64,000 bases of DNA from contig CAVUUM010000026.1 in assembly GCA_963744665.1 (NCBI GenBank), positions 97,270 to 161,269 of the forward strand, given 5' to 3'. Made by a program: the position numbers and the translations under genes. Within the stretch, counting starts at the first letter, position 1. Each line of letters begins with the position of its first letter. Of this stretch, positions 13,855 through 28,946 are shown piece by piece. The notes beneath the pieces are model-generated. The model saw only the letters and a program-made list of their open reading frames with translations. It was not told where the DNA came from and ran no database searches. The DNA comes from an uncultured delta proteobacterium (GTDB lineage: Bacteria; Desulfobacterota; Desulfobacteria; Desulfobacterales; B30-G6).

Positions 13855-14021
13855 CGGACACCCCTTTTTTTTATTCTTGACAGCCTATTTACTACATTGT
13901 AGCATATAGCAATTGCTAAATAAACATATCCTTTGAAATTGTTTTTTCTCCCTTATTCTTGATGAAATTGTAAAAAGTCAGAATCAGACGGTTTCGAAAA
14001 AAAGTTCAAATTGAAGAACCT

Positions 14022-14138
14022 CGCAGCAAGCTGCGAGGAATCTTCGACCGTAAGGAATTCTGTCTAATTTAGATTCGCTCGCTAACCCCGCAGCAAGCTA
14101 CGGGGAATGCGCTCGCTATTTCGGTTCAAGGCGTGCAA
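14022..14138 (+). repeat. REP/MITE-like intergenic repeat, family A, copy 1
   Basis: It contains the hairpins cctcgcagcaagctgcgagg and ccccgcagcaagctacgggg. An ~85-nt core is nearly identical to 30270..30360. Related copies lie at 16724..16812 and 53050..53135 in reverse orientation. Confidence 0.8.
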
Positions 14139-14279: not shown

Positions 14280-14843
14280 ATGAAAAAAAACAACATTATC
14301 AAAGCAGCGACCCGCTTTTTTGCCTCACAGGGTTTTGACGGAACGACAACCAAGACAATCTCAGACAAAGCCGGTGTAACAGAACCACTTCTGTACTATC
14401 ACTTTTCCGGAAAAGATGAAATCTACACATCGATTTTTGATTCGATCTTTTCTGAATACTTCAACCAATTGGACGTGTTGAAAACGGAAACCAATACCCT
14501 GTTTGAAAAAATTGAAAGCCTTTTTCTGGTACACTTCACGCTTGTCAAAAAAATGCCCAATGAAATGGCTCTCATTTTGTCTCCCCGACCCGCAAAACTA
14601 AACGACCCGGACAACATTTACACAAAAAACACAAAACAACACAAGAAATGGCTGAAATCCTATATCAGCGACTGTTTAAAGAAAGGGATCGATTCCGGTG
14701 AGTTTAATCCCGTTCAGATTAAAGAGACCACCAGCATCATCATCATGATGCTCAACGAAATCCTTCATAAAAAAGAATATAAGGACACCCAAGCCATGCG
14801 GGATTCTGTGATAGGTTTCTGGCGAAAAATTCTGGTGTCCTGA
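14280..14843 (+). CDS. TetR-family transcriptional regulator
   Basis: 187-aa ORF with the N-terminal HTH AATRFFASQGFDGTTTKTISDKAGVTEPLLYYHF. Confidence 0.85.
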   Translation: MKKNNIIKAATRFFASQGFDGTTTKTISDKAGVTEPLLYYHFSGKDEIYTSIFDSIFSEYFNQLDVLKTETNTLFEKIESLFLVHFTLVKKMPNEMALILSPRPAKLNDPDNIYTKNTKQHKKWLKSYISDCLKKGIDSGEFNPVQIKETTSIIIMMLNEILHKKEYKDTQAMRDSVIGFWRKILVS

Positions 14844-15114
14844 CAACAAATCCGAACAATCAAACTTGACCATCGTGCCACTATGTGGTATGTTATTGTA
14901 GACGCTTCTGAATCGATCTGATACAGGTGCGTGTTACCAAAAACAATCACCACAACAAAAAGGGATTTGCTTTTACAATAGCAATCCCCTTTTAAATTAT
15001 TGAAACTGATCAATAAGCAAACGCTCGCTATGGCATTTGTCCGGGCTTCCCTGGTTTACGCGCAGACGGCATACAGGGAAGCCCGTATCCCGATTTATTT
15101 TTATTCAGTGGAAT

Positions 15115-16500
15115 CTATATGAGTCCTTTGCTCTCTAATCGCTTGACACAATTGATGTCAATATCCAGGATTTTGGCAATACGAATTTTAGCCTCAATTC
15201 CCTTCACACATCCAGGTAGTGGGGAAAGACTGCCCATCTCCAAATCTTCACGGATTTCCGTCATTACCACCGGATCGGAAAGATCATGAACTGAAACACG
15301 CAACTTGTCTGCCACATAGGCCTTGGCGTCGTTTATCTTCATACCACGGGTCATCTGCATTCGTGCCACCAGATCTCCGGCAGCCCGCATTCCACCCATG
15401 CCCGAGGCAATAGCGTGGGAAATAGCCATGCCTAACGGATCACCTACGCCAACCTACAACCCGTCGAGCCGGCAGATTTCCACCATGGCCGCAGAGGCGC
15501 GGGATGTAATGTCCACCGGCGGGTGATTGGTCATGGGAACACCGCCGACGCCCATACCCATGTTCGCATGGATCGGAATGTTGGCCACGTCACAGCAGGC
15601 TTTGGTAAAAGTAATGGCCCGAGCCAGATTCCAGGGGCAGGAATGATTGGTTTTGACATTGACCACCGGTCCAAAAATTGTCACGCCGGCTTTTTCCGCC
15701 ATCCTGACTTGATCATGGGCATACATACCGGCCAAGCGTTCGCCCTGGTACCTCAAATCCCCGTGCATTCCTAGAACAAATTCCCCTGCCATTCCAAGTT
15801 CAATACAGATACCGGGATACTTTTCATTCAGAATTTCAGAAGCCTTCAAACCGGCAAGGAAATCAGCATCCCCCGCCGCACCTACGGTATCAAGATTGAC
15901 ACCGTCTGCTCCGGATTCAACCATGGCGCCGGCAACAAAGACAATATCTTTGACAGCGGCCTCTACTGAATTCTCATAAGATTTTTGAACTTCGTCAATC
16001 TTTCCCATGGTCAACAGTTCCGAGGGATTTTGAAAAGGACCGTCCGGTTGGGTATACAAACCCAGGTTCGGCATGGCACCGTAGAAGAGTGGCGGGTGCG
16101 TCACCATCAATACTTGCTCCAGAACGGTTTGTTCCATGCTCACAATCGGTTTGACCTGCTTGTAGCTGTAGTCGATATGACCCAGTTCAAGGGTATCCGC
16201 TCCCAATAGCTTTTCATAGACCTGCAATGCTTGAACACGATGGACATCGATGGCAGTGCGCATCATCTTGATGGGTGCACCGTCATAAGAAAGTACGACT
16301 TCATTACCAGGTTCCACACCCACAAAACGATACGGTGTCATAAAAAGATCGAACAGGTATAGCAGCGCTTCTTTTGAAAGAGGGGCAATCCTGCCGTATT
16401 TGGCAGCATTTTCCGCACCTTCAACCAGATCGCTCATGAGTTGTTTTTCAGTCATTTCAACGGGAAACCCATCACCCATTCGTGTCATTATTTTTCCCAT
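15115..16500 (-). CDS. mtbB: Dimethylamine:corrinoid methyltransferase with in-frame UAG (pyrrolysine) at 15456..15454
   Basis: ORFs 15454..16500 and 15115..15429 share one frame and are separated only by TAG plus 8 sense codons. The joined sequence reads ...[45 protein letters not shown]. That matches my memory of the region around the Pyl codon in Methanosarcina MtbB. The N-terminal part ([40 protein letters not shown]) is also MtbB-like. The joined length is 461 codons. Confidence 0.85.
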
Positions 16501-16581
16501 AAGATCTCCTTTTTCACGTTATTTAAAACCTGGTCCTTTGGGCTAGGTCAGAGATATTTGGCTATGCCGAATGCGATAGTT

Positions 16582-16870
16582 ACTTAAATCCGAAGCACGA
16601 AATTCGAAATCCTAAACGGTTCGACAGGCTCACCACCCCGAGCAACGTCGAAAGGCAATACTTAAAGATCCAAATTCGAATGATCAAAACAAGACCGTGG
16701 AGATACAAGTTCGAGCACTATGTTTGAACCGCCATAGCGAGCGCATTCCCCGTAGCTTTAACCCCGTAGCTTGTCGAAGATCCCGGTTTATCGGGGCTGC
16801 GAGGATCTTCATTCATTTGAGCATTTGATATTTGGATTTGTTTTGTATTTCGATATTCGGATTTAGAATT
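16582..16870. repeat. Composite palindromic intergenic element (terminal inverted aaatccgaa/ttcggattt) enclosing family A copy 3 (16724..16812)
   Basis: The left arm (taaatccgaagcacgaaattcgaaatcc...caaattcgaatgatcaaaacaag) and right arm (gatatttggatttgttttgtatttcgatattcggattta) are imperfect reverse complements. A fragment of it (atttcgtgcttcg) recurs near 47455. Confidence 0.6.
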
Positions 16871-16949
16871 TATCATACGCTAAATGTGCATAATATTAAT
16901 CCCTTATAGGGTCGAATCAGTAGCAGGCCCTTTGGACCCGGGTATTTAT

Positions 16950-18449
16950 CTATTTGGAGACTTTGAGTTCCTTTTCTGCTTCCTCCACAATCGCTCGCAT
17001 GGTGGCCAGAACATCATCGGGCAGCGGGTCAGGCTTGTGGGTTTCTAAAATACGCCGCGCCTCTTCCGAAGCCCTTGCATATATATCTGTACTGCCGGAG
17101 GCCTCCCATTCTTCCCGCATCCTGCGATCGATGAGTTTAGGCTGGGATTGAGACCGCATGTGTTTGAACGTGGCATCATGACTGAGGAAATTTTTCCCTA
17201 TCCCAATCTCCCGAATGACGTCCACTGCCAGCGTTTCGTCGTTGACGGGGATTCCATGCAGCAAGAATTTGATCATCTTGGCAAATTCGTTGTCCATAAC
17301 CAGTTGGCCGAAATCGATGGTCATGCCCATTTCGATCATACCCAGGCCGTAAATCAGGTTGGCACCTGCCAACGCTGGTAACAGGCCTGTGATGGTTTTC
17401 TCGTGACCGGACTGGGCATCACAGACTTTGCTGTCGCCCTACCCGCCAGCGACCCAGCTGGGAAGCAGATAGTAGATGGACATTTGAGCCACCGCGGCGT
17501 TGATCAAAGCACACTCAGGAGATCCCACGGATGCGGCAGCCAGCCTCAGATCCATGGCCGTCGTGGAACTGCCGTAAATAAATTTCGCTCCTTTACGGGT
17601 ACACTGACTGAGCACAAGTCCTCCAAGGATTTCCGCGTTATGATCCACCAGGGTGCCGGCCAAGGTCACTGGAGACGAGCCACCGGCCATGGCCATGGAT
17701 AAAACATTTACGGCCAAATCTGCCCGAGCGGATTCCATGATAATTTCACAGCTGTCCTTAACAAGCTGCAGCGGACTCACCGGGCAGGTAATAAACGAAA
17801 TAATGGGACGCTCTTTCAGTTTTTCCTTGCCGCCGACAATGGCAGCGGCCATTTCAACAATTTTTTTGGTCAAATATCCATTGCCGGACCCCATGAACCC
17901 ATGTTTGGTCGTGTTGGGCAGCCAGGCTTCGGCGTTATGAAGCTGCACCGTCTGCGTCGGCACATCACTGGCGCCAACGGCCCGTTCATAAACATCGATT
18001 TCGCTCAGATAGTCGGCAATCAGAGCCGAGGCAGCCACATCCGCCTTGGTCGTCTCCCGATGCTCCCCCGTGTATGGGTCGTTAATAAAAACGCCTTCCC
18101 CAAAATTAGTGAAGCCTACGCGGTTTTTTTCCATAATAAAGTCGTTTTTTGAATCACGCCCGTACAACACAATTTTTGGCGGTGCTGAACGGATGGCGTC
18201 CTCAACCATGTGAGGGGGGAACTTGGCTATACGGTTCTTTTTGTCGATGACAGCGCCTCCGCCATCGAGGACAGCCAGCGCCTCTTCATCCTCGAAAAAA
18301 AGACCGGTCTTTTCCAGAACCTCAAGTGTGGCCAGATGAATTTCATCCATTTCCTCATCGGTAAAGACCTTGAATTCTAGGCCACCATCCCTGCTTTTTC
18401 CTGCTCGCATATTGCGTCTCAAGAAATCACCTCCTTTTGGTTTTACCAA
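16950..18449 (-). CDS. mttB: Trimethylamine:corrinoid methyltransferase with in-frame UAG (pyrrolysine) at 17441..17439
   Basis: ORFs 17439..18449 and 16950..17372 share one frame. I read the codons across the gap as ...[50 protein letters not shown] with no other stop. The joined length is 499 codons, with the UAG at codon 337. That size and position fit my memory of archaeal MttB. Confidence 0.85.
17385..17426 (-). other. 10-bp stem-loop in the mttB mRNA, starting 12 nt 3' of the in-frame UAG
   Basis: In the sense RNA, GUCUGUGAUG (17426..17417) pairs with CAUCACAGGC (17394..17385). That gives 9 Watson-Crick pairs plus one G-U and a 22-nt loop. The G-U position is a C-A mismatch on the opposite strand, so the structure is specific to the sense strand. 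Confidence 0.4.
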
Positions 18450-18674
18450 TTTACCTCAAATAGGAAACGATAACAGATCCTTTTCAGTTTAGCAAGGGAT
18501 CGGTTGCGGTGTTAGCTGAGTATACAACATTATTTTAGATAGTTATATTTAATGTCGCCAGGATTTTTTGTTGCCGGTCAAGATTGAAACGATTAAAGCA
18601 TATTGACAGGCAATACCCTAACTTCTTAAAGTCTGATAATGAGCAAACATTTTCATCGATAAAGGAAACGTCCC

Positions 18675-19436
18675 ATGAACTGGATAATGGACCCGAATAT
18701 CTGGCTGGCCTTATTGACATTGAGTGCCATTGAAATTGTGCTAGGTGTCGACAATATTGTTTTTATCGCTATTTTAGCCGGCAAACTTCCCGAACATCAA
18801 CAGGCCAGAGGACGAACAATCGGATTGATTTTGGCAATGGCCACACGAATTCTGCTTCTTTTTTCCATTACCCTGATCATGAAATTGACCCAACCGCTTT
18901 TTGTGATTTTTTCTTTTGAGATATCGGGTCGTGATATCATTCTGATTGCCGGTGGATTGTTTCTTCTGGTGAAGAGCACACTCGAAATTCACAGCAATCT
19001 GGAAGGCGAAGAAGCACACGTACAACAGGACCGGGTCAAAAAAGCAACATTTACAAGCGTGGTGACCCAGATCATGATCCTGGACATTGTTTTTTCAATC
19101 GATTCCGTGGTCACGGCCATTGGCCTGGCCAAGCAACTCAGTATCATGGTTGCGGCCATTGTTATCGCCGTTATCGTCATGATCTTTTTAGCGGGGCGCA
19201 TCAGTTCGTTTGTCGATAATCATCCAACCATCAAAATGCTGGCGCTGAGCTTTCTTTTGCTCATAGGCATCTCCCTGGTGGGGGAGGGGCTGGCGCTGCA
19301 CATCCCCAAGGGGTATATCTATTTTGCCATGGCGTTTTCGATATTCGTCGAAATCCTCAACATGAAAATCCGCAAGCATCGGGTCAAACCTGTAAAACTT
19401 CGCAACCCCAGGTCGGCAAAAATCATCCACACATAA
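18675..19436 (+). CDS. TerC-family integral membrane protein
   Basis: 253-aa ORF. LALLTLSAIEIVLGVDNIVFIAILAGKLP is typical of TerC/YoaE. There are multiple TM segments. Confidence 0.8.
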   Translation: MNWIMDPNIWLALLTLSAIEIVLGVDNIVFIAILAGKLPEHQQARGRTIGLILAMATRILLLFSITLIMKLTQPLFVIFSFEISGRDIILIAGGLFLLVKSTLEIHSNLEGEEAHVQQDRVKKATFTSVVTQIMILDIVFSIDSVVTAIGLAKQLSIMVAAIVIAVIVMIFLAGRISSFVDNHPTIKMLALSFLLLIGISLVGEGLALHIPKGYIYFAMAFSIFVEILNMKIRKHRVKPVKLRNPRSAKIIHT

Positions 19437-19588
19437 AATCGACTCACCATTAAATTAACCGCTTGACTTTCAATTCAACTTCCCTCTAAAGCACATGTCA
19501 TCAAATCGTTCCGATTTATAAGGGAAAATCAACACAAAGATTGGGACAAAAGACATTTTTGAGATAGTTTCTGCAAAGGAACCATGGC

Positions 19589-21595
19589 ATGACAGTTGTA
19601 TTGGGTATCGATACGGGCGGGACATATACAGATGCGGTTCTGATCAATTATGAGAACGGCAAAGTCCTGTCGAGTGCCAAGTCTTTGACGACGCACCAGG
19701 ATCTTTCCACCGGTATCCATGCGGCTGTCACGTCCGTTATGACCATCAATCGCAAAGCTATTTCCCCCAAAAAAATCTGCCTTGTGGGTCTGTCCACGAC
19801 CCTTGCTACCAACGCCATTGCAGAAGGGCACGGCGTCCCTGTTTGTCTTCTATTGATAGGGTATGACCGGGACTTGATCCATCAATACCGTTTCCAACAT
19901 GCCTTGGGAACACCCAATGTGGTCTATCTGCAAGGTGGGCATGACCAGCAGGGCAACGAACGTCGACCCCTGAACGAAGATGCCGTCAAAAATACCATTT
20001 TAAAGTGGCGAAAAAAAATCAATGCCTTTGGCGTCTCGGGCTATTTTGGTGCATTCAACCCGGAACACGAATTAAAGGTCAGAACATGGATAGAAGACCT
20101 TACAGATCTTCCGGTGACCTGCGGTCATGAACTTTCCACGCGTCTGGACGCCATCCGCAGGGCAACAACCGTGGCCCTGAATGCCCGATTGATTCCCATC
20201 ATACAAGATCTGATATTCAATGTCCGTGCCACCCTGAAAGCCCTGTCCATTCCGGCACCACTGATGGTGGTAAAGGGTGATGGAAGCCTGGTTCAAGCGG
20301 ATTGGGCCTTGAAGCGGCCCATCGAAACGGTCCTTTCCGGCCCGGCCGCAAGCGCACTGGGGGCCCTGAAACTCACCGGGGGAAAAAATACATGGGCTGT
20401 GGACATGGGCGGAACCACCACTGATATTGTCGAGCTCATTGAAGGTGCGCCGTCGCTCAATCCGAATGGAGCCTGTATTGGCGGATGGCGGACCATGGTT
20501 GAAGCCGTAGATGTTCACACCATAGGACTTGGAGGAGATAGCCATGTCCGTGTGTCTTCCGAAAACCAGTTGGTTATAGGTCCTAATCGTGTCATACCGC
20601 TATGCAAACTGGCCAGTGAATACCCGGACAAGGTAATGGGTACACTGAGAGCCCTTGGTAATTCAGACAAATCTGATCTGGATGCTACCCAGTTTCTGAT
20701 TTCGGGAAAAGCAGAACAACCCCAACTGTCTCAAAACGACGCAACACTATTGGCAAAATTGGATGATGGACCCCAACCGCTGACAACCATCACCGGCCCC
20801 GCTGCTTATGCAGACCCATGGATTTCAAAACGTATCCAGAACCTTGCAGAAACAGGTCTAATTCAATGCGCAGGCTTCACTCCAACGGATGCGCTGCACG
20901 TCCTGAAATGTTTTCAGGAATGGGATGCAGAGGCATCTCTACTGGCGGGCAAACTTCTATCCACCCATCTTGGATTGCCCACAGAAGTATTCTGCAAACA
21001 GGTGGTGGAAACCGTGTCCAGAAAGACCGCAACAGCCATTGCATCCAAGGCTATCACAGACGAAATGGGGAATCCTGATTGGAAACAGGTGCAAACTGAC
21101 GGGTTTCTGCTGAATAAAGCCCTCAAACAAGACCAGAAAGGAAAATTGATTCCAGAAATCAGATTGAAGCATCCCCTGGTCGCTCTGGGTGCGCCGGTAA
21201 CAGCATATATGCCCGGAGCCGCAGATATCCTGAGGACCGGGCTTTCAATTCCTGAATTTGCGGAGGTAGCCAACGCTATCGGAGCTGTCAGCGGTCAAAC
21301 GGTTTTACGACTCAGAATCCGCATCCGACCCATAAGCGGAAGTCAAAACGTCCGGCTTCTTTCCCCTCACAGCCCCAGGGATTTTTCTAATATTGAAGAA
21401 GCCGTTGAATATGCCATGGGTCACATGACACCCCTGGCAGAAGATATGGCACGTCAGGCCGGTGCCAAACATGTGCAGGTGCAGGTAATCCGAAAAGAAA
21501 AAAAGGCCAGAGCGAAAGGAAACAAAGAGGTATTTCTTGAGACCGAATTGACTTTCATAGCCCTTGGAAGACCGGCCATGGCATTTAAACAGTAA
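19589..21595 (+). CDS. Hydantoinase/oxoprolinase-family (ASKHA-fold ATPase) protein
   Basis: 668-aa ORF. The N-terminus VVLGIDTGGTYTDAVL and the later AVDMGGTTTDI are the two phosphate-binding motifs of the hydantoinase A family. Confidence 0.7.
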   Translation: MTVVLGIDTGGTYTDAVLINYENGKVLSSAKSLTTHQDLSTGIHAAVTSVMTINRKAISPKKICLVGLSTTLATNAIAEGHGVPVCLLLIGYDRDLIHQYRFQHALGTPNVVYLQGGHDQQGNERRPLNEDAVKNTILKWRKKINAFGVSGYFGAFNPEHELKVRTWIEDLTDLPVTCGHELSTRLDAIRRATTVALNARLIPIIQDLIFNVRATLKALSIPAPLMVVKGDGSLVQADWALKRPIETVLSGPAASALGALKLTGGKNTWAVDMGGTTTDIVELIEGAPSLNPNGACIGGWRTMVEAVDVHTIGLGGDSHVRVSSENQLVIGPNRVIPLCKLASEYPDKVMGTLRALGNSDKSDLDATQFLISGKAEQPQLSQNDATLLAKLDDGPQPLTTITGPAAYADPWISKRIQNLAETGLIQCAGFTPTDALHVLKCFQEWDAEASLLAGKLLSTHLGLPTEVFCKQVVETVSRKTATAIASKAITDEMGNPDWKQVQTDGFLLNKALKQDQKGKLIPEIRLKHPLVALGAPVTAYMPGAADILRTGLSIPEFAEVANAIGAVSGQTVLRLRIRIRPISGSQNVRLLSPHSPRDFSNIEEAVEYAMGHMTPLAEDMARQAGAKHVQVQVIRKEKKARAKGNKEVFLETELTFIALGRPAMAFKQ

Positions 21596-21789
21596 GCTGT
21601 AAGCACTGAGCGCATGCGGCTTAACGCTCAAAACGTATACCTCAGATTTATGTCTTGGCTTTTTTTATAAAATATCATAATTTTGAATGGAAACGACAGG
21701 TCCCTGGCCCGAAATTGTTTTACATTGATATAAAATGAGGCATCGCCGCTCATACGGCAACATACTAACGCTACTAATAGGAGCTCACC

Positions 21790-22587
21790 ATGTTAATTGT
21801 TGGAGAACTGATCAATGCAAGCCGAAAGACCATTGGCACGGCCATTGAAATAGAGGACGGGGAAAGCATAGCAAAAATCGCCAGAGATCAGGCCGAAGCC
21901 GGTGCTGATTTTATTGATGTCAATGCCGGTGTTTTTGTCGGTAAAGAGCCTGAATACCTGGAATGGCTGGTGAAAACTGTTCAAGCAGCCGTCGATAAAC
22001 CCTGCTGCATAGACAGCCCGGACCCCAAGGCCATCGAAAAAGCGCTGGCTGCCCACAAAGGCATAGCCATGATCAATTCCATATCCCTGGAAAAAGAACG
22101 CTATGACACCCTGATGCCCATCATTGCCGGAACCGATCTTAAGGTGGTAGCCCTCTGTATGAGCGACGAAGGCATGCCGGAGACCACCTCGGATCGAATG
22201 AGAATTGCCGATAAACTGATCAACGGTCTCATCCAGAATCGTATCCCCTTGGAAAATATCTATGTAGATCCACTGGTTCAACCCGTATCCACGAACAACA
22301 ACTTTGGAGTGGAATTTCTGAACGCCATCCAACAAATTATGAATACATTTGACGGTATTCACACGGTTTGTGGTCTTTCCAATATCTCATTTGGCCTGCC
22401 TCTCAGAAAATTTCTGAATCAGACATTTATGAGCATGGCCATTGCCAAGGGACTTGATGGGGCCATAGTCAACCCGCTGGACAAGAAAATGATGGCCAAT
22501 ATCATTGCAGCAGAAGCCCTTGCCGGCAGGGATGATTATTGCATGTCATACCTCAAGGCCTACCGGGCAGATCTCTTTGCATCTTAA
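21790..22587 (+). CDS. Methyl-corrinoid:tetrahydrofolate methyltransferase (pterin-binding, MtrH/AcsE-like)
   Basis: 265-aa ORF with GELINASRK, AGADFIDVNAG, INSISLE and VCGLSNISFGLP. These are hallmarks of pterin-binding (DHPS-like) methyltransferases found in bacterial corrinoid methyl-transfer systems. Confidence 0.75.
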   Translation: MLIVGELINASRKTIGTAIEIEDGESIAKIARDQAEAGADFIDVNAGVFVGKEPEYLEWLVKTVQAAVDKPCCIDSPDPKAIEKALAAHKGIAMINSISLEKERYDTLMPIIAGTDLKVVALCMSDEGMPETTSDRMRIADKLINGLIQNRIPLENIYVDPLVQPVSTNNNFGVEFLNAIQQIMNTFDGIHTVCGLSNISFGLPLRKFLNQTFMSMAIAKGLDGAIVNPLDKKMMANIIAAEALAGRDDYCMSYLKAYRADLFAS

Positions 22588-22637
22588 CGGAAATGAACAT
22601 ATGTGTTTTCACAATTTGCGATTGAAAGGAGTGTAGC

Positions 22638-23279
22638 ATGTCTGAAATAATTTACCAGGAAGCCATGGAGGCTATCCTGAAGGGTGATGTGGACAAAGCC
22701 GTTGACACCGCCAAAAAGGGGATCGACATGGGTATGGATCCTTTGGACCTGATGAACAACGGTTTCATCTCCGGCATCAATGAAGTGGGCGACCTTTTCG
22801 AAACCGGCAGACTTTTTCTGCCCCAGCTGGTTATGTCCGCCTCGGCCATGGAAAAAGCCACGGAAATTATCAATGCGGCCATTCCAGAAGGTAAGGGAAC
22901 CATATCCGGGAAAGTTTTGGTGGGGACGGTCGAGGGCGACGTACACGACATTGGAAAAACCATTGTCGTGGCCCTGTTCAAAGCCAATGGCTTCGATGTA
23001 CTGGATATCGGAAGGGACGCACCCATCGAACGTTTTATTGACGAGGCTGAAAAATTTGGAGCCGATATTATCGGTTCGAGCACCCTTTTAACCACCACCA
23101 TGGCCGTGCAGAAACAGATCGAAGAGGAGTTAAAAAAAGCCGGTATAAGGGATAAATACAAAACCCTTGTGGGCGGTGCTCCTGTAACCCAACGATGGGC
23201 AGACCGAATCGGTGCCGATGCCTATGCCCAGGATGCAAGCGACGGTGTGCGCAAGGTTAAGGAATTGTTAGCAGGCTAG
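22638..23279 (+). CDS. Corrinoid (B12-binding) methyl-carrier protein, MttC/MtbC-like
   Basis: 213-aa ORF with an N-terminal helical cap and GTVEGDVHDIGKTIV (DxHxxG) plus SSTLLTTTM and GGA. It ends in TAG (23277..23279). Confidence 0.85.
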   Translation: MSEIIYQEAMEAILKGDVDKAVDTAKKGIDMGMDPLDLMNNGFISGINEVGDLFETGRLFLPQLVMSASAMEKATEIINAAIPEGKGTISGKVLVGTVEGDVHDIGKTIVVALFKANGFDVLDIGRDAPIERFIDEAEKFGADIIGSSTLLTTTMAVQKQIEEELKKAGIRDKYKTLVGGAPVTQRWADRIGADAYAQDASDGVRKVKELLAG

Positions 23280-23382
23280 GAAGATTGGCGGCTGGGAGGC
23301 CGGAAAGCTGCTATCAGCTTATAGCGGACAGCCAATAGGAGCCTCCAGGCATATAACTTCCAAGCTTTCCAGCTACGACTGC

Positions 23383-23456
23383 GGGGAGTGGATCGCAATG
23401 GGATCGTGTGGACTCTAAATCCACATAGACGGGTGCAACTCCCGTACTCCCCGCCA
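23383..23456 (+). tRNA. pylT: tRNA-Pyl, anticodon CUA (amber suppressor), CCA encoded
   Basis: Folded by hand. The acceptor stem pairs GGGGAGU with ACUCCCC. The anticodon stem is 6 bp (UGUGGA/UCCACA) with loop CUCUAAA, placing CUA at 23415..23417. The variable loop is 3 nt (UAG). The T arm is ACGGG-UGCAACU-CCCGU, without the canonical T-loop sequence. The discriminator is G, followed by CCA. A long anticodon stem, short variable loop and single base between acceptor and D stem are the known oddities of tRNA-Pyl. Confidence 0.9.
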
Positions 23457-23533
23457 TTGATCCTTCGGATACCAGTGGCTCTTAGCCCTTGGCTTGTAGC
23501 TAAGCTAAAACCTAAAACATAACACCTAAAACA

Positions 23534-24376
23534 ATGACAATCTCCTGGACACAAACACAGATACGACGACTGAATGCCTTGAATGCCCCGGGCGCGGCAT
23601 TGAAAAAGACCTTCGATGACAAACCCGCGCGTGAGAATGCTTATCAAGCCTTGGAAAAATCACTGGTGATGACTCAGCGACAGCAGTTGGCGGAATTTCA
23701 AACCACGCCCGGCTGTCCCGAACTTTGCCGGCTTGAAACCAGGCTTGTCCGTATTCTGACGCAAGCCGGATTTGCCCAGGTAACGACCCCCATCATCATG
23801 TCCAGGGGACTGTTGAAGAAGATGTCAATCGATGCAAAGCACCCGCTCAATTCCCAAATATTCTGGCTCCAGGACGATAAATGCCTGCGACCGATGCTGG
23901 CGCCCCATCTCTACTATCTCCTGGTTGACCTGCTCCGCGTTTGGGAACGACCTGTACGAATCTTTGAAATTGGCCCCTGCTTCCGAAAAGAATCCAAGGG
24001 AGCGAAACACGCCGGTGAATTTACCATGTTGAACCTGGTTGAAATGGGTACCCCCGAGAAAACCCGGAAAGAAAGAATCCTGAATCTGGGCGCACGTGTG
24101 GCCACGGCAGCAGACGTGAAAGACTTTCGTTTTGAGACAGTGTCCTCGGAAATATACGGCGACACCATCGATATCGTCGCCGGAAAAGACAATCTCGAAA
24201 TTGCCTCTGCCGCCATGGGGCCACATCCTCTGGATCGGCCATGGAAGATAAGTGAATCCTGGATCGGAATCGGTTTTGGTCTCGAACGCCTCCTGATGGC
24301 CTCCCACCAATCCAGGAACCTTGCCAGGTTCTGTCGAAGCCTGTCTTATTTAGACGGCGTCCGGTTAAATATTTGA
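23534..24376 (+). CDS. pylSc: Pyrrolysyl-tRNA synthetase, catalytic C-terminal polypeptide (bacterial split form)
   Basis: 280-aa ORF with class II aaRS motifs LRPMLAP, FEIGPCFRKES and IGIGFGLERLL. It lies immediately 3' of the CUA tRNA. Confidence 0.9.
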   Translation: MTISWTQTQIRRLNALNAPGAALKKTFDDKPARENAYQALEKSLVMTQRQQLAEFQTTPGCPELCRLETRLVRILTQAGFAQVTTPIIMSRGLLKKMSIDAKHPLNSQIFWLQDDKCLRPMLAPHLYYLLVDLLRVWERPVRIFEIGPCFRKESKGAKHAGEFTMLNLVEMGTPEKTRKERILNLGARVATAADVKDFRFETVSSEIYGDTIDIVAGKDNLEIASAAMGPHPLDRPWKISESWIGIGFGLERLLMASHQSRNLARFCRSLSYLDGVRLNI

Positions 24377-24479
24377 GCACTCGGGAAGTTTTTAACCATT
24401 TTGGAGCGGGAGGAAGAATCCACGACCCCGGTACGCCAGCACATGTATAAGGCACCTAAAGAAAGAACAATATTCGATA

Positions 24480-25676
24480 ATGAAAGTAGCGATCATCGGT
24501 GGTAAACTTCAAGGGCTTGAAGCGGCATATCTTGCCGAAAAAGCCGGCTGGGATGTGACAATCATCGATCGGGCGCCCGATGTGCCGGCTGCGGGTCTCT
24601 GCCACCAGTTTTTGCTTGCCGACATTACCAACCAAACAGACTTGAAGCGCTTTCTGCAACCGTTTGACCTAATCATACCGGCCCTGGAGAACCATGACGC
24701 TTTAGCGTGTCTCCAAAATTGCGCACAAAATGACAGAACACGCATTCTTTTCGATTTCGATGCCTATGCCATCACCTCCTCCAAGATTGAATCGGACAAA
24801 CTGCTCGCCGGCATCCACATCCCCACCCCATCATCCTATCCCGACGGTGGTTTTCCTGTTATCGTCAAACCAAGTAGAAGCAGCGGCAGCAAGGGAATTT
24901 GTGTTGTTCATGATTCAAAACAACTTGAATCTCATCTTGCAACGGCACCCGGAGAGCAGGTCATTCAGAAATTTGTCCATGGCCCCTCATACTCCCTGGA
25001 AATCATCGGCTACCCGGGAAACTATTGTCCCCTCCAGGTAACCGAACTTGAAGTGGATCCGGTCTTTGATTGCAAGCGGGTGATTGCCCCCTCGGGTCTT
25101 TCCCAAAAAATGATTGCGGATTTCGAACATATCGCCGTCACCACTGCCAACGCCCTAAAATTAAAGGGTTTGATGGACGTAGAAGTCATTCTGGATTATG
25201 AGGTACTGAGAGTTCTCGAAATCGATGCGCGCCTCCCCAGCCAGACACCCATAACCGTGCATACCTCCACCGGTGTCAACATGCTTCAGTTGCTGGCAGA
25301 GCAACATTGCCGGCCGTCACACAATGGGGCGGGTATTGCTGTTGCCCAGAGAGGTGTCGTGTATGAGCATATCAGGGTTAGCGGCAGCACATTGGTTGTC
25401 ACGGGTGAACATGCCATGGCATCCGCAGGCGCTCTCCATCTGGTAGAGGATTTTTTCGGTGCCGATGAAGCCATCACCTCCCAGACGGGCAACCGGACGG
25501 ATTGGGTGGCGACATTGATCATTTCCGCAGAAAACAGAACCACGGCATGGGAGAAACGGGAGGCGGTTATCGCCGATATTATGCGTTTTTTTAATCTCGA
25601 CACCTACAGGGACCACAGCCCGTTCCATTATGGTGCTGACGAGCCATCCCTGACGTTGAAAGGATCATTCAAGTGA
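24480..25676 (+). CDS. pylC: Pyrrolysine biosynthesis ATP-grasp ligase
   Basis: 398-aa ORF. MKVAIIGGKLQGLEAAYLAEKAGW, FDFDAY, VIVKPS and LEIDARLPSQTP run parallel to my recollection of Methanosarcina PylC. Confidence 0.85.
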   Translation: MKVAIIGGKLQGLEAAYLAEKAGWDVTIIDRAPDVPAAGLCHQFLLADITNQTDLKRFLQPFDLIIPALENHDALACLQNCAQNDRTRILFDFDAYAITSSKIESDKLLAGIHIPTPSSYPDGGFPVIVKPSRSSGSKGICVVHDSKQLESHLATAPGEQVIQKFVHGPSYSLEIIGYPGNYCPLQVTELEVDPVFDCKRVIAPSGLSQKMIADFEHIAVTTANALKLKGLMDVEVILDYEVLRVLEIDARLPSQTPITVHTSTGVNMLQLLAEQHCRPSHNGAGIAVAQRGVVYEHIRVSGSTLVVTGEHAMASAGALHLVEDFFGADEAITSQTGNRTDWVATLIISAENRTTAWEKREAVIADIMRFFNLDTYRDHSPFHYGADEPSLTLKGSFK

Positions 25677-26521
25677 CCCGGCTGACATCAAGTGATATTC
25701 AAGGCATTTCCGAAGAACTGCCCGCATACGAATCATCACTGATGAAAAAAACCGGTTGCTCCCTGCGACAGCTTGCCTGTCGGGCAATGAAAGTGACTGA
25801 AATAGATGTCCAGACATCTTTGGAACACACCCTTGTGGGTGTCATACCCATGACATCGGGTGGCGGCGTATTAAAAGGATTTTGTGGGACTGTGGCAAAG
25901 ATTGTCAACCACATCGGTTGCAGAGCCTTTGCTACACGGAGTACGGATGCTTCGGGTATCGCCGAAGCAGTGGAAAAGAAGGCCGACATCCTCATGTTTG
26001 CCGATGAAAATCGGTTTGTCGCCCTTGATATGCAGCACCGCAAACTCATGGACAATGCCGATGCAACCGGCAGGGGCTTCGTGGCGGGTCTGAACCTCAT
26101 GGCAGAGAGCTTGAACGATCAAAAGGTACTTGTCCTGGGATGTGGTCCGGTGGGGCAGAGCGCGGTGAAGGCCCTGGCAAAAACGGGGTGCCGTATTTCT
26201 GTCTACGACATCGAAACAAAAGCATACGACCGCGTATCAACGGAATTCAAGAACGACCCGGATATTGAGATTCAATTTTTGTACAACCTTGATCTGGCAT
26301 TGCATCAACACGCACTCATGGTCGATGCATCCCCGGCGGGCGGTTTCATTGGGGCGCGGCATATCAGTCCCCATACGATTATCAGTGCTCCCGGTATGCC
26401 TCTTGGCCTTGACAGGTCAGCGCTGGCAGCCATCGGCGGCAGACTCCTCCACGACCCGCTTCAGATCGGGGTGGCAACCATGGTGGTCGGTGCTTTAGCC
26501 CGAACATTTCATGAAATTTGA
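25673..26521 (+). CDS. pylD: Pyrrolysine synthase (NAD-dependent dehydrogenase)
   Basis: 282-aa ORF with IPMTSGGG, ILMFADENRF, VLVLGCGPVGQSA and SAPGMPLG, as in PylD. A 4-nt overlap joins it to pylC. Confidence 0.85.
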   Translation: MTRLTSSDIQGISEELPAYESSLMKKTGCSLRQLACRAMKVTEIDVQTSLEHTLVGVIPMTSGGGVLKGFCGTVAKIVNHIGCRAFATRSTDASGIAEAVEKKADILMFADENRFVALDMQHRKLMDNADATGRGFVAGLNLMAESLNDQKVLVLGCGPVGQSAVKALAKTGCRISVYDIETKAYDRVSTEFKNDPDIEIQFLYNLDLALHQHALMVDASPAGGFIGARHISPHTIISAPGMPLGLDRSALAAIGGRLLHDPLQIGVATMVVGALARTFHEI

Positions 26522-26593
26522 CGAGAAATTTTTATTTATCTTTACATGGCAGCAGGTTGTCATATTATATCAAGTTAATCAGAATATCGAACG

Positions 26594-26935
26594 ATGAAAT
26601 CAAAAAAACCAGCCAAACGATTTTACCGCAAACGGGTGGAGCTTTTCCGTCTGATCGAGAAGATAAAACTCTGGCCAGCCAGAAGCGGTCTCCTCCACGG
26701 TATCAAATCCATCGACATCATGGGTGACCAGGCCCGTATCACAACCCATTGCAATAAAACATTCATGGTGAACAACTCCCGAAACAGCCGCGCGGCAAGA
26801 TGGCTTCGCAACAAATGGTTCAATGGGGCCTGCGGCGCATGCGGTGTCCCTGAGTGGAAACTAGAAAAATATGCGTCCACACAATTCAGACGTCACTTTG
26901 GGTCACAATTGCTGAAAAAGACTGGACCCGAATAA
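26594..26935 (+). CDS. pylSn: Pyrrolysyl-tRNA synthetase N-terminal tRNA-binding polypeptide
   Basis: 113-aa basic ORF (KRFYRKRVELFRLIEKIKLWPARSGLLHGI...HCNK...ARWLRNKW...CGACG). Its size, position after pylD and Cys/His pattern fit bacterial PylSn. Confidence 0.75.
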   Translation: MKSKKPAKRFYRKRVELFRLIEKIKLWPARSGLLHGIKSIDIMGDQARITTHCNKTFMVNNSRNSRAARWLRNKWFNGACGACGVPEWKLEKYASTQFRRHFGSQLLKKTGPE

Positions 26936-27115
26936 CCTTTGTAATCAAAGGGTATAACACCCAAACCTATCGTTGAACTTAACGTTTTGTCTTCTTGATT
27001 GTCAATCCTATACCATCGATATCGGAAAGAAGAGGTCGTTGCAGTAACCCTCGAAGAACATATATCAGGTTCTGCCAAACGTGATCAGCGAATGAGCGTC
27101 AACCACCAGGTTGTT

Positions 27116-27805
27116 CTATGACACACCAAATCCCGCTTCAATTTTTGGATCATAGGCAGCCTTTCGAGAAGGACAATCCTTGCGGTCACAAAGCTGGCAA
27201 CTGATAAATGGAACCTCTGTGGGAAAATAGATACCGGACACCGATTTTGCAGGAATCATCAGGCAGCTGCTGTTAAGGGAAACATTGATGGGGGTTTTCC
27301 CATCCCCAAACAAAGCAAACAAAGGCCGCTGTTCTTCCAGAGGCCAATCTGTCAATGACCCCGGGCTCATAAAGGACATACCCTCGAGGCCATACCCCGC
27401 CTGCAGCGTTTGTTCGAGATAGTTTCGCACGGTACTCAGGGCAATGTTGCCGATCACATCCAGATAGTATTTCACCACCAGGTCTTTCTGGGCATCCATC
27501 TGCTCCAGATAATGGCTTCCGATAGTAACAACAAATGGGAACACCCGCTCCACCGCTGCCAGGTTTTTTGCCAGCACCCGGCTCCTGAAACGCACCCCAT
27601 CAATACCGATGAGTTGGTCCTGCTTTTCATCGATATAGCAAACCCGGTAGACCGCTTTTGCCCGAATATCCGGCAAGATCGTCTGGATGAGAGTCTTGAC
27701 TTCGTCCCAGCGTGCACCCCTTTTCAGGTGAAGCTGGCGCCTGATTTCCCCAAAAGGCAAAGATAAAGGTATTTTTTCAAGAATATGCATTTTTTCTTCC
27801 AGCAT
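27116..27805 (-). CDS. Methionine-synthase activation-domain-like protein (corrinoid reactivation domain) with a C-terminal Cys cluster
   Basis: 229-aa ORF. SPGSLTDWPLEEQRPLFALFGDG...INVSLNSSCLMIPAKSVSGIYF resembles the MetH AdoMet/activation domain. The C-terminus reads CQLCDRKDC. It ends in TAG. Confidence 0.55.
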   Translation of the reverse strand: MLEEKMHILEKIPLSLPFGEIRRQLHLKRGARWDEVKTLIQTILPDIRAKAVYRVCYIDEKQDQLIGIDGVRFRSRVLAKNLAAVERVFPFVVTIGSHYLEQMDAQKDLVVKYYLDVIGNIALSTVRNYLEQTLQAGYGLEGMSFMSPGSLTDWPLEEQRPLFALFGDGKTPINVSLNSSCLMIPAKSVSGIYFPTEVPFISCQLCDRKDCPSRKAAYDPKIEAGFGVS

Positions 27806-27855
27806 CCGAACATCTATATCCGCTCAAAATATATTTTCAAGCGTTTTATCACGTT

Positions 27856-28946
27856 AGGGGACGTTCCTTTATATGTTGACAATCTAAAATTTGTCTGCAA
27901 TAAAACACAAATGCCACGCCAATCAAGAATAGACGCCCCTGGGGCTTTGCATCATATTATTGTGAGAGGCATCGAAAAAAAACCAATTTTTCGAGATGAT
28001 GCCGATAGAGATAACTTTTTGGAGCGATTGAAAAACATCTTGAAAGATGACGCAGCATTTTGCTTTGCATGGTCCCTAATGCCCAATCATGTTCATTTGC
28101 TTTTGAAAACCGGAAACACATCGATCTCAACTATTATGAGACGGCTTCTTACGGGTTACGCAGTCTATTATAATCGCAAACATGATCGTGCGGGCCATCT
28201 ATTTCAGAACCGATACAAATCGATTCTTTGCCAGGAAGACACATATCTTTTAGAACTGGTAAGATATATCCACTTGAACTCCCTCCGAGCAGGTATTGTA
28301 ACGGATCTTGAGTCGCTTGATAGATACAAATACAGTGGTCATGCAACAATAATTGGTAACGATAAGAACGACTGGCAAACTACTGAATATATTCTTGCTA
28401 TTTTTTCTGAAAGGCTATCACAAGCGCGCCGGAGATACCGGAAATACATACAAAAAGGAATATCTGCGGGGAAAAGACCGGATCTCGTTGGTGGTGGCCT
28501 TGTCAGGAGTGTTGGTGGCTGGCACGCTCTCAAGGATTTGAGAAGAAGAAAAGCGTACATGAAAGGAGATGAACGGATCTTGGGCGACAGTGATTTTATC
28601 AAAAATGTCCTTCAATCCTGTAGGGATGAATATGAACAAAAATATTTATTAAAAGCCAAAGGATACACTTTTGATACCGTTGTCGCTCGTGTCGCCGAAG
28701 TATTAGGCATGGAAAAAGCAGACGTTTTGTCAGCAGGTAGACAACCCCTACGGGTAAAGGCCAGAAGATTGTTATGTTTCTGGGCATCACGAGAACTCGG
28801 TATAACCATGGTGGACTTGGCCAAACGTTTAAAAATATCACCGTCGACCGTAAGCCAATCAGCTAGCCGTGGAGAAAAAATCGCAAAAGAAAGCAATTTA
28901 AGATTATTATGATGCAACATTATCAACTTATCAAGGAACGTCCCCT
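27856..28946 (+). mobile_element. IS200/RAYT-like unit: Y1 transposase gene bracketed by a perfect 13-bp inverted repeat
   Basis: aggggacgttcct at 27856..27868 and its exact reverse complement aggaacgtcccct at 28934..28946 flank the CDS 27911..28912. Confidence 0.6.
27911..28912 (+). CDS. REP-associated tyrosine transposase (IS200/Y1 HUH) fused to a C-terminal DnaA-C-like HTH domain
   Basis: From the Met at 27911, MPRQSRIDAPGALHHIIVRG...PNHVHLLL (HUH)...LVRYIHLN (catalytic Tyr region). The C-terminus RLLCFWASRELGITMVDLAKRLKISPSTVS is HTH-like. The ORF-track start at 27785 is probably too far upstream. Confidence 0.75.
   Translation: MPRQSRIDAPGALHHIIVRGIEKKPIFRDDADRDNFLERLKNILKDDAAFCFAWSLMPNHVHLLLKTGNTSISTIMRRLLTGYAVYYNRKHDRAGHLFQNRYKSILCQEDTYLLELVRYIHLNSLRAGIVTDLESLDRYKYSGHATIIGNDKNDWQTTEYILAIFSERLSQARRRYRKYIQKGISAGKRPDLVGGGLVRSVGGWHALKDLRRRKAYMKGDERILGDSDFIKNVLQSCRDEYEQKYLLKAKGYTFDTVVARVAEVLGMEKADVLSAGRQPLRVKARRLLCFWASRELGITMVDLAKRLKISPSTVSQSASRGEKIAKESNLRLL

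Follow-up and report, generated by a model that had tools for sequence, protein, structure and literature searches.

UAG as pyrrolysine codon and as ordinary stop codon in a methylamine gene cluster of a Desulfobacterota-type bacterium

Introduction

How can one codon encode an amino acid within a gene and also end it? In the 64-kb stretch of DNA analyzed here (the window), which belongs to a Desulfobacterota-type MAG of an uncultured, sulfate-reducer-type bacterium, UAG stands for pyrrolysine (Pyl) inside two methylamine methyltransferase genes and is also the terminator of both and of about one-fifth of all genes. In the literature on Pyl-using Deltaproteobacteria (PMC1976440, PMC8318568, and PMC7593587), the frequent use of UAG as a stop was recognized as a puzzle as early as 2007. 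Stops at UAG are frequent in D. hafniense, and no PYLIS shared by bacteria could be found (PMC1976440). For bacteria, "regulation rather than codon avoidance" has been put forward (PMC3941956), and Acetohalobium arabaticum decodes UAG as Pyl only when grown on trimethylamine (Prat et al. 2012, summarized in PMC8211752). Among archaea, the median TAG share is 5% in Pyl-encoding species versus 22% in those without Pyl (PMC12626013). Earlier publications report that Pyl bacteria do not deplete UAG and explain this through regulated expression (Zhang & Gladyshev 2007; Prat 2012 as cited by Borrel 2014).

Results

The locus has the standard make-up of a bacterial pyrrolysine/methylamine gene cluster, in the ordinary arrangement for a Pyl-decoding bacterium (Table 1). 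It contains mtbB and mttB, with one in-frame UAG apiece, and a corrinoid protein gene directly followed, on the same strand and with no more than 104 nt between neighbors, by pylT-pylSc-pylC-pylD-pylSn; no terminator-like sites were found between the corrinoid protein gene and the pyl genes. The Pyl system is supported by the tRNA-Pyl, whose gene is almost invariant among relatives, and by PylSc, PylC, PylD, PylSn, and the corrinoid protein, all of which score above curated NCBIfam cut-offs. The hydantoinase/oxoprolinase-like ATPase is a putative corrinoid reductive activase. The TetR-family gene beside mtbB, found by synteny in three relatives as well (L002, L006, and L007), is a candidate regulator. 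In L001, L006, and L007, mtbB starts no more than ~14 nt after the mttB stop, as against a 449-nt spacer in the window. The tight spacing of the pyl genes behind the corrinoid gene and the TetR-family gene flanking mtbB are consistent with a regulation model. No promoter or operator common to both gene groups was found, and promoter and terminator scans did no better than on shuffled sequence.

Differences from relatives 3' of the internal UAGs fall mostly at third codon positions, with ratios of synonymous to nonsynonymous codons from 25:9 to 42:11. This purifying selection shows that the internal UAGs of both mtbB and mttB are translated.

Table 1. Features of the window. Codons on the minus strand are given in reading direction.
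Feature	Coordinates	Strand	Basis and remarks
Glycosyltransferase-like gene, TAG-terminated, outside the island	8108..9412	+	Weak Pfam match only
TetR-family regulator gene	14280..14843	+	Adjoins mtbB; Pfam TetR_N E = 3.4e-15
mtbB, dimethylamine methyltransferase	15115..16500	-	Pfam Dimeth_Pyl E = 8e-192, match crosses UAG; translation
mtbB in-frame Pyl UAG	15456..15454	-
mtbB terminal UAG	15117..15115	-
mtbB second in-frame TAG	15030..15028	-	29 codons on
mtbB next TGA	15012..15010	-
mtbB PYLIS_2 segment	15357..15456	-	100 nt from the Pyl codon
mtbB hairpin	~15384..15365	-	Within the PYLIS_2 segment
Hairpin 3' of mtbB terminal UAG	15042..15085	-
Spacer mttB/mtbB, 449 nt	16501..16949		Contains a short dispersed repeat
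mttB, trimethylamine methyltransferase	16950..18449 (5' end approximate)	-	Pfam MTTB E = 1e-87, crosses UAG; translation
mttB in-frame Pyl UAG	17441..17439	-
mttB terminal UAG	16952..16950	-
mttB backstop TGA	16919..16917	-	11 codons on
mttB PYLIS_3 segment	17342..17441	-	100 nt from the Pyl codon
mttB hairpin	17358..17373	-	68-83 nt after the U of the Pyl UAG
TerC-family membrane protein gene	18675..19436	+	Between two divergent gene groups; Pfam TerC E = 5e-47
Hydantoinase/oxoprolinase-like ATPase gene	19589..21595	+	Pfam Hydant_A_N, Hydantoinase_A
Methyltetrahydrofolate:corrinoid methyltransferase gene	21790..22587	+	NCBIfam NF005719, 352.9 bits (cut-off 259)
Methyltransferase-cognate corrinoid protein gene	22638..23279	+	NCBIfam pyl_corrinoid, 238 bits (cut-off 215)
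Corrinoid gene terminal TAG	23277..23279	+
Corrinoid gene second TAG	23322..23324	+	15 codons on
Corrinoid gene first non-TAG stop, TAA	23520..23522	+	Past pylT
pylT, tRNA-Pyl gene, anticodon CUA	23383..23456	+	ARAGORN
pylSc, pyrrolysyl-tRNA synthetase large subunit	23534..24376	+	Stop TGA; NCBIfam TIGR02367, 310 bits (cut-off 178)
pylC	24480..25676	+	Stop TGA overlaps pylD start; NCBIfam TIGR03909, 397 bits (cut-off 248)
pylD	25673..26521	+	Stop TGA; NCBIfam TIGR03911, 240 bits (cut-off 150)
pylSn, pyrrolysyl-tRNA synthetase small subunit	26594..26935	+	Stop TAA; NCBIfam TIGR03912, 132 bits (cut-off 51)
Gene weakly similar to methionine-synthase activation domain	27116..27805	-	Pfam Met_synt_B12 E = 7.6e-4, below curated cut-off
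Activation-domain-like gene terminal TAG	27118..27116	-	TGA 17 codons on
HU/IHF-family gene, TAG-terminated	38303..38581	-	Pfam Bac_DNA_binding E = 4.8e-28
Acyl-CoA dehydrogenase gene, TAG-terminated	40901..42772	-	Pfam match
4Fe-4S protein gene, TAG-terminated	49647..50489	-	Pfam match; TGA 4 codons on
ADP-ribosylglycohydrolase gene, TAG-terminated	53157..54098	+	Pfam match; TGA 6 codons on
Choline/ethanolamine kinase gene, TAG-terminated	60942..61895	+	Pfam match; TAA 8 codons on

Every stop codon that a first-pass annotation of the window had reported was present at its position, including the second TAG of mtbB, whose spacing is 29 codons and not 30 as had been claimed. Its estimate that about 10 of about 55 coding sequences end in TAG agrees with our tally. 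After curation of the ORF list (one spurious antisense ORF was dropped and frameshifted fragments were merged), 53 genes remained, ending in TAG (10 genes; 19%), TAA (20), or TGA (23). The six TAG-ended genes outside the island are real ORFs, five of which match Pfam at or above the curated cut-off, the glycosyltransferase-like gene being the exception.

The annotation was also right that UAG is not depleted, and this extends to 80 related Pyl loci (1.2 Mb, mostly from Desulfobacterales MAGs and including the Olavius algarvensis delta-1 symbiont as L039), in which stop usage and backstop distances were tabulated. Stops were counted in the neighborhoods of pyl cassettes rather than in whole genomes, and a greedy longest-ORF rule took the place of a gene finder. 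Under these conditions, TAG ended 235/1077 genes (21.8%). The share in the window is indistinguishable from this value (p = 0.74) and greatly exceeds the 5% median for archaea that encode Pyl (binomial p = 2.6e-4). Genes expected to be co-expressed with tRNA-Pyl (mtbB, mttB, corrinoid protein, and pylS/C/D) end in TAG just as often, with 79/369 (21.4%) versus 21.8% (Fisher p = 0.94); by gene, TAG stops number 11/35 for mtbB, 11/47 for mttB, 16/41 for the corrinoid protein, and 17/81 for pylSc. Nearby UAA/UGA backstops were not enriched in the 80 loci, neither in all genes (median of 22 codons after a TAG stop versus 17 after other stops) nor in the core co-expressed genes (13 versus 20, p = 0.36). 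These comparisons show that terminal TAGs carry no selective signature.

Independent relatives (L001, L002, L003, and L007) carry these terminal TAGs at matching positions, which excludes sequencing errors. In L006, TAA takes their place at the same position, and the alignments collapse directly past the stop, with indels there that are not multiples of three. Judging by these alignments, the terminal TAGs are real stops, and the collapse implies that any extended isoform would be a non-conserved by-product. The C-terminally extended isoforms that the annotation had offered as a fallback are plausible as a minor product, with extensions that are not conserved. The distance to the mtbB backstop is not conserved either (11, 19, and 21 codons in close relatives), and the terminal TAG of the activation-like gene is common to all six close relatives having that gene.

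The 100 nt starting at each Pyl codon match Rfam families of putative pyrrolysine insertion sequences, PYLIS_2 (RF02509) in mtbB, with 88.2 bits (gathering score, 36), and PYLIS_3 (RF02510) in mttB, with 78.2 bits (gathering score, 38); the window sequence of the PYLIS_3 segment folds with z = -3.5. The mtbB segment holds a hairpin, GCUGCCGG-AGAU-CUGGUGGC (-11.8 kcal/mol), which is part of the PYLIS_2 consensus and is paired in 77% of cells versus ~40% when the pairing is slid. In mttB, a conserved hairpin G-UUGGC-AGGU-GCCAA-C (-8.9 kcal/mol) is paired in 98% of cells, and its closing pair varies between AU (15 sequences) and GC (12 sequences), with at least four independent switches. Because it is missing from the PYLIS_3 consensus structure, the UUGGC/GCCAA hairpin seems specific to this bacterial clade. 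Synonymous constraint is strongest at codons +25..+29 after the Pyl codon in mtbB (permutation p < 1/2000) and at codons +23..+28 in mttB (p < 1/2000). In each gene, the most constrained stretch corresponds to a small hairpin ~70-90 nt past the Pyl codon.

Discussion

Dual use of UAG is normal in bacteria that use pyrrolysine and has been described before. The best explanation, which we hold to be probable, is that UAG stays a normal stop with which a Pyl suppressor competes, and that the cassette is expressed conditionally. UAG would remain an ordinary stop, presumably read by RF1, at the usual bacterial frequency of ~20%, and tRNA-Pyl(CUA), charged by PylSc/PylSn and encoded within the methylamine-utilization cluster, would act as an amber suppressor. 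At the catalytic-site UAGs of mttB and mtbB, competition between suppression and termination would yield full-length enzyme. At the terminal UAGs, the same competition would lengthen a minority of the products at most, giving them short C-terminal extensions that are not conserved (MttB, 11 aa; MtbB, 29-35 aa; corrinoid protein, 15 aa; activation-like protein, 17 aa) and that would be tolerated. The rest of the proteome would most likely be spared by expression of the cassette only during methylamine use, as in A. arabaticum. For this organism, we infer both RF1 competition and conditional expression.

The first-pass annotation had argued that Pyl insertion must be restricted by context or by regulated expression. 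Regulated expression is the accepted model, and the locus layout fits it, but "must" is too strong because regulation cannot protect genes co-expressed with tRNA-Pyl, and yet TAG ends 21.4% of these. Since these genes have a background TAG share without backstop enrichment, read-through at terminal UAGs seems inefficient or simply tolerated.

Known systems offer several parallels. Like this bacterium, A. arabaticum has a split PylRS (pylSc and pylSn), a cassette adjoining methylamine methyltransferase genes, and TAG as a common stop whose dual meaning is explained via regulation, not codon avoidance (Prat et al. 2012, per PMC3941956 and PMC8211752). Unlike our Desulfobacterota-type MAG, whose cassette is without pylB and for which methylamine induction is presumed, it belongs to the Firmicutes. 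Pyl-using Deltaproteobacteria (the O. algarvensis delta-1 symbiont, marine Desulfobacterales, and Bilophila) are of the same lineage type and have the same gene content, with MttB, MtbB, pylT, pylSc/Sn, corrinoid protein, and a transcriptional regulator nearby; the excerpted parts of the corresponding papers (PMC1976440, PMC8318568, and PMC7593587) contain no tabulation of terminal stops or backstops of Pyl genes, both of which are at background level here. In Methanosarcina and other Pyl-encoding archaea, UAG likewise means Pyl and stop within one cell, extended and truncated forms coexist, and no essential cis element is known (PMC12626013); the strong TAG depletion of these archaea (median 5%) has no counterpart in this bacterium and its relatives (19-22%). 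Bacterial SECIS-dependent selenocysteine insertion also gives one stop codon two meanings in the same genome, but SECIS lies directly past UGA and needs SelB, whereas no dedicated factor or ribosome-reachable element is evident here.

Alternatively, internal and terminal UAGs might be told apart by context, with an RNA element past the internal UAGs (a bacterial PYLIS) boosting Pyl insertion, terminal UAGs lacking it and terminating, and regulation being unneeded. We consider this rather unlikely. The Rfam families do match exactly the 100 nt past both internal UAGs, well over the gathering scores, although these scores stem mostly from coding-sequence conservation. Two non-homologous genes each have their strongest synonymous constraint 23-29 codons past the Pyl codon, in a small hairpin that in mttB shows compensatory AU-GC switches, but the hairpins begin ~68-72 nt past the UAG, too far to touch the decoding ribosome unless a larger fold forms, and such a fold shows little covariation (RNAalifold); moreover, the mttB hairpin lies outside the Rfam consensus. 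Of five non-Pyl MttB paralogs whose peptide motif is identical or nearly so (ALAGGN in four and ALAGAN in one), four use other codons in this stretch, while one non-Pyl paralog (L062) retains the hairpin. A purine occupies the +4 position past every internal UAG (n = 55), but it is set by the next amino acid, and 4/4 terminal UAGs of the island have it too. According to published work, PYLIS is dispensable, and no cis element is needed in E. coli (PMC8211752 and PMC9499178). The context option raised by the annotation gains some support from the Rfam matches and from the constrained hairpins, whose function is putative and which leave room for a cis contribution.

It is very improbable that this lineage has a nonfunctional Pyl system, for instance because pylB was lost, so that UAG would always be a stop, mttB and mtbB truncated relics, and the non-avoidance of TAG trivial. 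pylB is absent from the cassette and the whole 64-kb window, as well as from ±10 kb in five relatives (L001, L002, L003, L006, and L007); a complete Pyl biosynthesis pathway is therefore putative. However, bacterial pyl clusters can be interrupted by other genes (published surveys, PMC3941956), the relative L004 has pylB beside pylSc, all five genes of the cassette are intact, and past the internal UAGs the reading frames remain intact, with purifying selection acting on them throughout the clade.

Programmed terminal UAGs, with read-through yielding functional extended MttB, MtbB, or corrinoid protein or serving as a feedback sensor of the Pyl-tRNA level, are scarcely credible: the closest clade shares the terminal TAG (mtbB 4/4, mttB 4/5, and activation-like gene 7/7) and corrinoid proteins end in TAG somewhat above background (16/41, uncorrected p = 0.013), but this sharing is explained by common descent because identity is 92-96%, TAG is found in just 23-39% of orthologs and swaps freely with TAA and TGA, the post-stop sequence is unconserved with frame-breaking indels, and close relatives have their backstops anywhere between 10 and 35 codons away.

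A strong hairpin without a T-run lies 32-76 nt 3' of the terminal UAG of mtbB (-29.4 kcal/mol alone; -43.1 kcal/mol and z = -4.6 for the fold of 14995..15117 on the minus strand, which spans the hairpin) and is a possible 3' boundary of the operon.

A Pyl-decoding system beside its methyltransferase genes

On the plus strand of the island, the genes for a hydantoinase-like ATPase, a methyl-THF:corrinoid methyltransferase and its cognate corrinoid protein are followed, in close-packed order, by pylT, pylSc, pylC, pylD and pylSn, while mtbB and mttB lie on the minus strand. A split pyrrolysyl-tRNA synthetase is present, with PylSc scoring 310 bits against TIGR02367 (cut-off 178) and PylSn 132 bits against TIGR03912 (cut-off 51), and pylT is near-invariant among relatives. 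PylSc has a 100% identical match among database proteins, and the nearest genomes are metagenome-assembled genomes (MAGs) of an uncultured "delta proteobacterium" or of Desulfobacterales. A TetR-family gene adjoins mtbB. Beside the island lies an IS200-like Y1 transposase-domain gene, and one of the closest related loci (L001) has at 15123..16250 a 375-aa ORF equal to it in length and relative position.

Features of the island and of its surroundings, in window coordinates
Feature	Position	Strand	Remarks
mtbB	15115..16500	-	one in-frame TAG at 15456..15454; Pfam Dimeth_Pyl E = 8e-192 across the TAG
mttB	16950..18449	-	one in-frame TAG at 17441..17439; Pfam MTTB E = 1e-87 across the TAG
Hydantoinase-like ATPase gene	19589..21595	+	Pfam match; no NCBIfam score above cut-off
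Methyl-THF:corrinoid methyltransferase gene	21790..22587	+	above curated NCBIfam cut-off
Cognate corrinoid protein gene	22638..23279	+	above curated NCBIfam cut-off; directly before pylT
Corrinoid read-through frame	23277..23522	+	spans pylT; first UAA/UGA beyond the tRNA
tRNA-Pyl gene pylT	23383..23456	+	anticodon CUA (cta); ARAGORN
pylSc, pylC, pylD, pylSn, in that order	23534..26935	+	each above curated NCBIfam cut-off
Activation-domain-like gene	27116..27805	-	weakly similar to methionine-synthase activation domain
Y1 transposase-domain gene	27785..28912	+	375 aa
Hairpin after mttB Pyl codon	17358..17373	-	putative element
Hairpin after mtbB Pyl codon	15365..15384	-	putative element
Hairpin after mtbB terminal UAG	15042..15085	-	-29 kcal/mol; no T-run
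mttB-mtbB spacer	16501..16949		449 nt
Other copies of the spacer repeat	14012..14129, 15021..15035, 30340..30374
Rejected ORF	34612..35430	-	spurious; antisense of ABC ATPase gene (Pfam)
Fragmented-gene run	54272..60209 and 45687..46148
Aldehyde:ferredoxin oxidoreductase gene	54272..54703, 54657..55718, 55765..56223		over three reading frames

A tblastn search with PylB from L014 (E <= 1e-5) gave no match in the 64-kb window, cassette included, and a PylB query found none within ±10 kb in the five closest relatives (L001, L002, L003, L006 and L007). In three other related loci (L004, L014 and L026), pylB sits directly behind pylSc. Despite the absence of pylB from the cassette and the window, an inactive Pyl system is argued against by the conservation of the frames past the internal UAGs. 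TAG is aligned at the Pyl position in 36 mttB and at least 26 mtbB orthologs, and the frames 3' of it are under purifying selection; between the window and L007, for example, there are 31 synonymous and 8 non-synonymous codon differences. Since purifying selection acts on these downstream frames, we infer that the internal UAGs of mtbB and mttB are translated.

UAG is a common stop codon in the window

The first-pass annotation held that UAG serves here both as a Pyl codon and as a common stop, and a codon check found every stop codon that it listed in place. mtbB ends in TAG, followed by another TAG 29 codons later and then by TGA; mttB ends in TAG, with TGA 11 codons later; and the activation-domain-like gene ends in TAG, with TGA 17 codons later. 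The corrinoid gene also ends in TAG, with a second TAG 15 codons later and no UAA or UGA before the TAA at 23520, and its read-through frame therefore crosses pylT.

A mechanical call with a 90-aa minimum gave 59 ORFs in the window, 12 of them with TAG ends, two of which are Pyl codons. The list was then curated by Pfam checks, which dealt with one spurious antisense ORF, rejected as a gene, and with several genes at 54-60 kb that are split by frameshifts. The curated window holds 53 genes, with 10 TAG, 20 TAA and 23 TGA stops (19% TAG). Among archaea, the median TAG share is 5% in Pyl-encoding and 22% in Pyl-free species (PMC12626013). The window share is incompatible with the former (binomial p = 2.6e-4) and agrees with the latter, as well as with the value in relatives. 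TAG stops were not significantly enriched in the island (4/12 vs 6/45 elsewhere in the window, p = 0.19).

Besides the aldehyde:ferredoxin oxidoreductase gene, the fragmented run contains a universal stress protein gene in two pieces, fragments of DctM, DctQ and DctP, and a C-terminal fragment of an aldo/keto reductase. The run is due either to gene decay or to indel errors of long reads.

Genes co-expressed with the cassette do not avoid TAG

We extended the comparison to 80 loci (±10 kb, 1.22 Mb in total) that surround PylSc homologs in species-representative genomes, mostly Desulfobacterales MAGs and including the Olavius delta-1 symbiont. In these pyl-cassette neighbourhoods, which are not whole genomes and in which genes were called heuristically, 235 of 1077 non-overlapping non-Pyl ORFs of at least 100 aa end in TAG (21.8%), a share of 22-24% when the minimum is raised to 150, 200 or 300 aa. 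The claim that UAG is not depleted thus holds both in the window (10/53) and across its relatives, among which the window is typical rather than an outlier (19% vs 21.8%).

While regulation could shield the general proteome, it could not shield genes co-expressed with the cassette. In brief, we located orthologs by tblastn and walked from each match to the first in-frame stop, which corrects for the short C-terminal part of mtbB that greedy ORF calling had hidden in three relatives. TAG ends 11/35 mtbB, 11/47 mttB-family (10/29 for confirmed Pyl-type), 16/41 corrinoid protein, 17/81 pylSc, 7/53 pylC, 4/51 pylD and 13/61 pylSn genes. The pooled cassette-co-expressed genes, with 79/369 (21.4%), are indistinguishable from the 21.8% background (Fisher p = 0.94), and TAG is not significantly enriched in the Pyl enzyme genes (22/82, p = 0.33). 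The distance to the backstop, the next in-frame UAA or UGA, has a median of 22 codons after TAG vs 17 after other stops when all genes are taken, and the core co-expressed genes show no backstop enrichment (13 codons after TAG vs 20, p = 0.36).

No selection against terminal UAGs or for backstops is thus detectable, because TAG shares are at background and backstops are no nearer, unlike the situation described in archaea (PMC9499178). Archaeal handling by codon avoidance is marked by 1) about 5% TAG stops and 2) a close UAA or UGA behind TAG, neither of which is seen here, whereas the roughly 20% TAG stops of regulation-type bacterial handling are matched. These findings sharpen the picture, since in the 80 bacterial loci neither TAG avoidance nor backstop enrichment is seen among genes left unshielded by regulation (Pyl enzymes, corrinoid partners and pyl genes). 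Read-through of terminal UAGs therefore seems to be rare or harmless.

Among single families, corrinoid genes have a TAG share of 39% (vs 21.8%), with p = 0.013 uncorrected for the roughly ten families compared and with shared ancestry uncontrolled.

Terminal UAGs behave as stops

In the closest clade (92-96% identity), L006 has TAA at the same position in place of the mttB and corrinoid TAGs, and the corrinoid gene of L001 extends 12 codons beyond the stop position of the window. In L001, L006 and L007, a ribosome-binding site and the ATG of mtbB lie within about 14 nt of the mttB stop. Past each stop, the nucleotide alignments collapse at once, and the indels there have lengths not divisible by three. 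Judged by these comparisons, the terminal TAGs are real stops. Any extended isoform, as envisaged in the first-pass annotation, would be a non-conserved by-product, because alignments break after the stops and TAG swaps with TAA.

L001, L006 and L007 lack the mttB-mtbB spacer and have about 14 nt between the two genes. The spacer harbours a dispersed repeat, roughly 35 nt long, with further copies elsewhere in the window and in other genomes (loci L074, L078 and L080). A separate and very stable hairpin lies 32-76 nt past the terminal UAG of mtbB, ahead of the next stops in that frame, in a 123-nt region with z = -4.6; if it marks the 3' end of the transcript, read-through ribosomes would reach a stop-less end. 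In L003 (10224..11696, minus strand), a 228-aa ORF continues the frame of the activation-domain-like gene past its terminal TAG (11007..11009), with no stop between. This ORF had no match to MttB, MtbB or corrinoid queries, and the arrangement may be a Pyl-containing fusion that has gone unrecognised or simply two adjacent same-frame genes.

Conditional expression of the cassette is plausible

That UAG has two uses in Pyl-decoding bacteria has been recognised as a puzzle since 2005-2007, and the accepted explanation, that the pyl cassette is expressed conditionally, is based mainly on one cultured Firmicute. This regulatory answer is said to date from 2012, with Prat et al. What we find is a correct re-derivation of this known biology in a new genome, with nothing new in kind. 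For D. hafniense and the Olavius symbiont, a 2007 report already describes frequent use of UAG as a stop and the resulting need for a distinguishing mechanism (PMC1976440), and another paper describes Pyl clusters of deltaproteobacteria that have a regulator close by (PMC8318568).

The corrinoid gene precedes the cassette on the same strand, pylT being separated from its two neighbours by 104 and 78 nt, and a terminator scan revealed no terminator-like site in the gap before pylT. Over the island as a whole, promoter and terminator scans gave counts no higher than in shuffled sequence, and a search for an operator or palindrome shared upstream of the mttB-mtbB and pyl-containing groups found only the dispersed repeat. 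By precedent, conditional expression of the cassette is nevertheless plausible in this organism, because A. arabaticum decodes UAG as Pyl only on trimethylamine, according to a passage in PMC8211752, and the bacterial solution is described in part of PMC3941956 as "regulation rather than codon avoidance". The first-pass annotation had gone further, holding that insertion must be restricted by context or regulation. Regulation stands as plausible, but "must" is too strong, since tolerated low-level read-through fits equally well.

Conserved hairpins follow the internal UAGs of mttB and mtbB

The base following the internal Pyl UAGs (+4) is a purine in 55/55 cases, because the next residue dictates it (Gly/Ser in MttB, Val/Ile in MtbB). 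It was rejected as a discriminator, since a purine also stands at +4 of all four terminal UAGs in the island. The Rfam matches cover precisely the 100 nt that follow each internal UAG, with PYLIS_2 (RF02509) scoring 88.2 bits in mtbB against a gathering score of 36 and PYLIS_3 (RF02510) scoring 78.2 bits in mttB against one of 38, scores that are confounded by coding conservation; Rfam gave no match after the terminal UAGs.

We scanned for synonymous constraint, using synonymous-codon identity corrected for amino-acid composition in subsets at <= 90% identity. Although mttB and mtbB are non-homologous, each has its whole-gene peak of constraint shortly past the Pyl codon (p < 1/2000 in either gene by permutation), at codons +23..+28 in mttB (TTG GCA GGT GCC) and +25..+29 in mtbB (xCC GGA GAT CTG GTG). 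In each gene, the constrained stretch folds into a small hairpin (alignments A2 and A3). The one in mttB, R-UUGGC-AGGU-GCCAA-Y (17373..17358), is 98% paired over 29 sequences and lies outside the PYLIS_3 consensus. It has one covarying pair, the closing one, in which both bases occupy third codon positions; 15 sequences have AU there and 12 have GC, and on a neighbour-joining tree the pair has switched independently at least four times. The mtbB hairpin belongs to the PYLIS_2 consensus, whose structure is 77% paired with few two-sided pair changes. Five non-Pyl MttB paralogs carry an identical or near-identical peptide motif; four of them encode it with other codons, and one retains the hairpin. 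When 29 mttB and 26 mtbB segments were folded with RNAalifold, consensus energies were weak (-11.5 and -11.7 kcal/mol), no larger PYLIS-like fold was well supported, and covariation outside the small hairpin was almost nil.

On these alignments, the hairpins are a real sequence feature and a putative element, which we do not take as the explanation of dual UAG use. They start about 68-72 nt past the UAG, beyond reach of the decoding ribosome, and published work found PYLIS dispensable (PMC9499178, PMC8211752). We consider it unlikely that they are parts of a bacterial cis-element that would bias internal UAGs to Pyl insertion or otherwise tie the fate of the mRNA to translation of the Pyl codon. 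If they were, UAG could code for Pyl within a gene and, some hundreds of nucleotides later, terminate it. The hairpins are a modest lead and offer a concrete target on whether context matters in bacteria.
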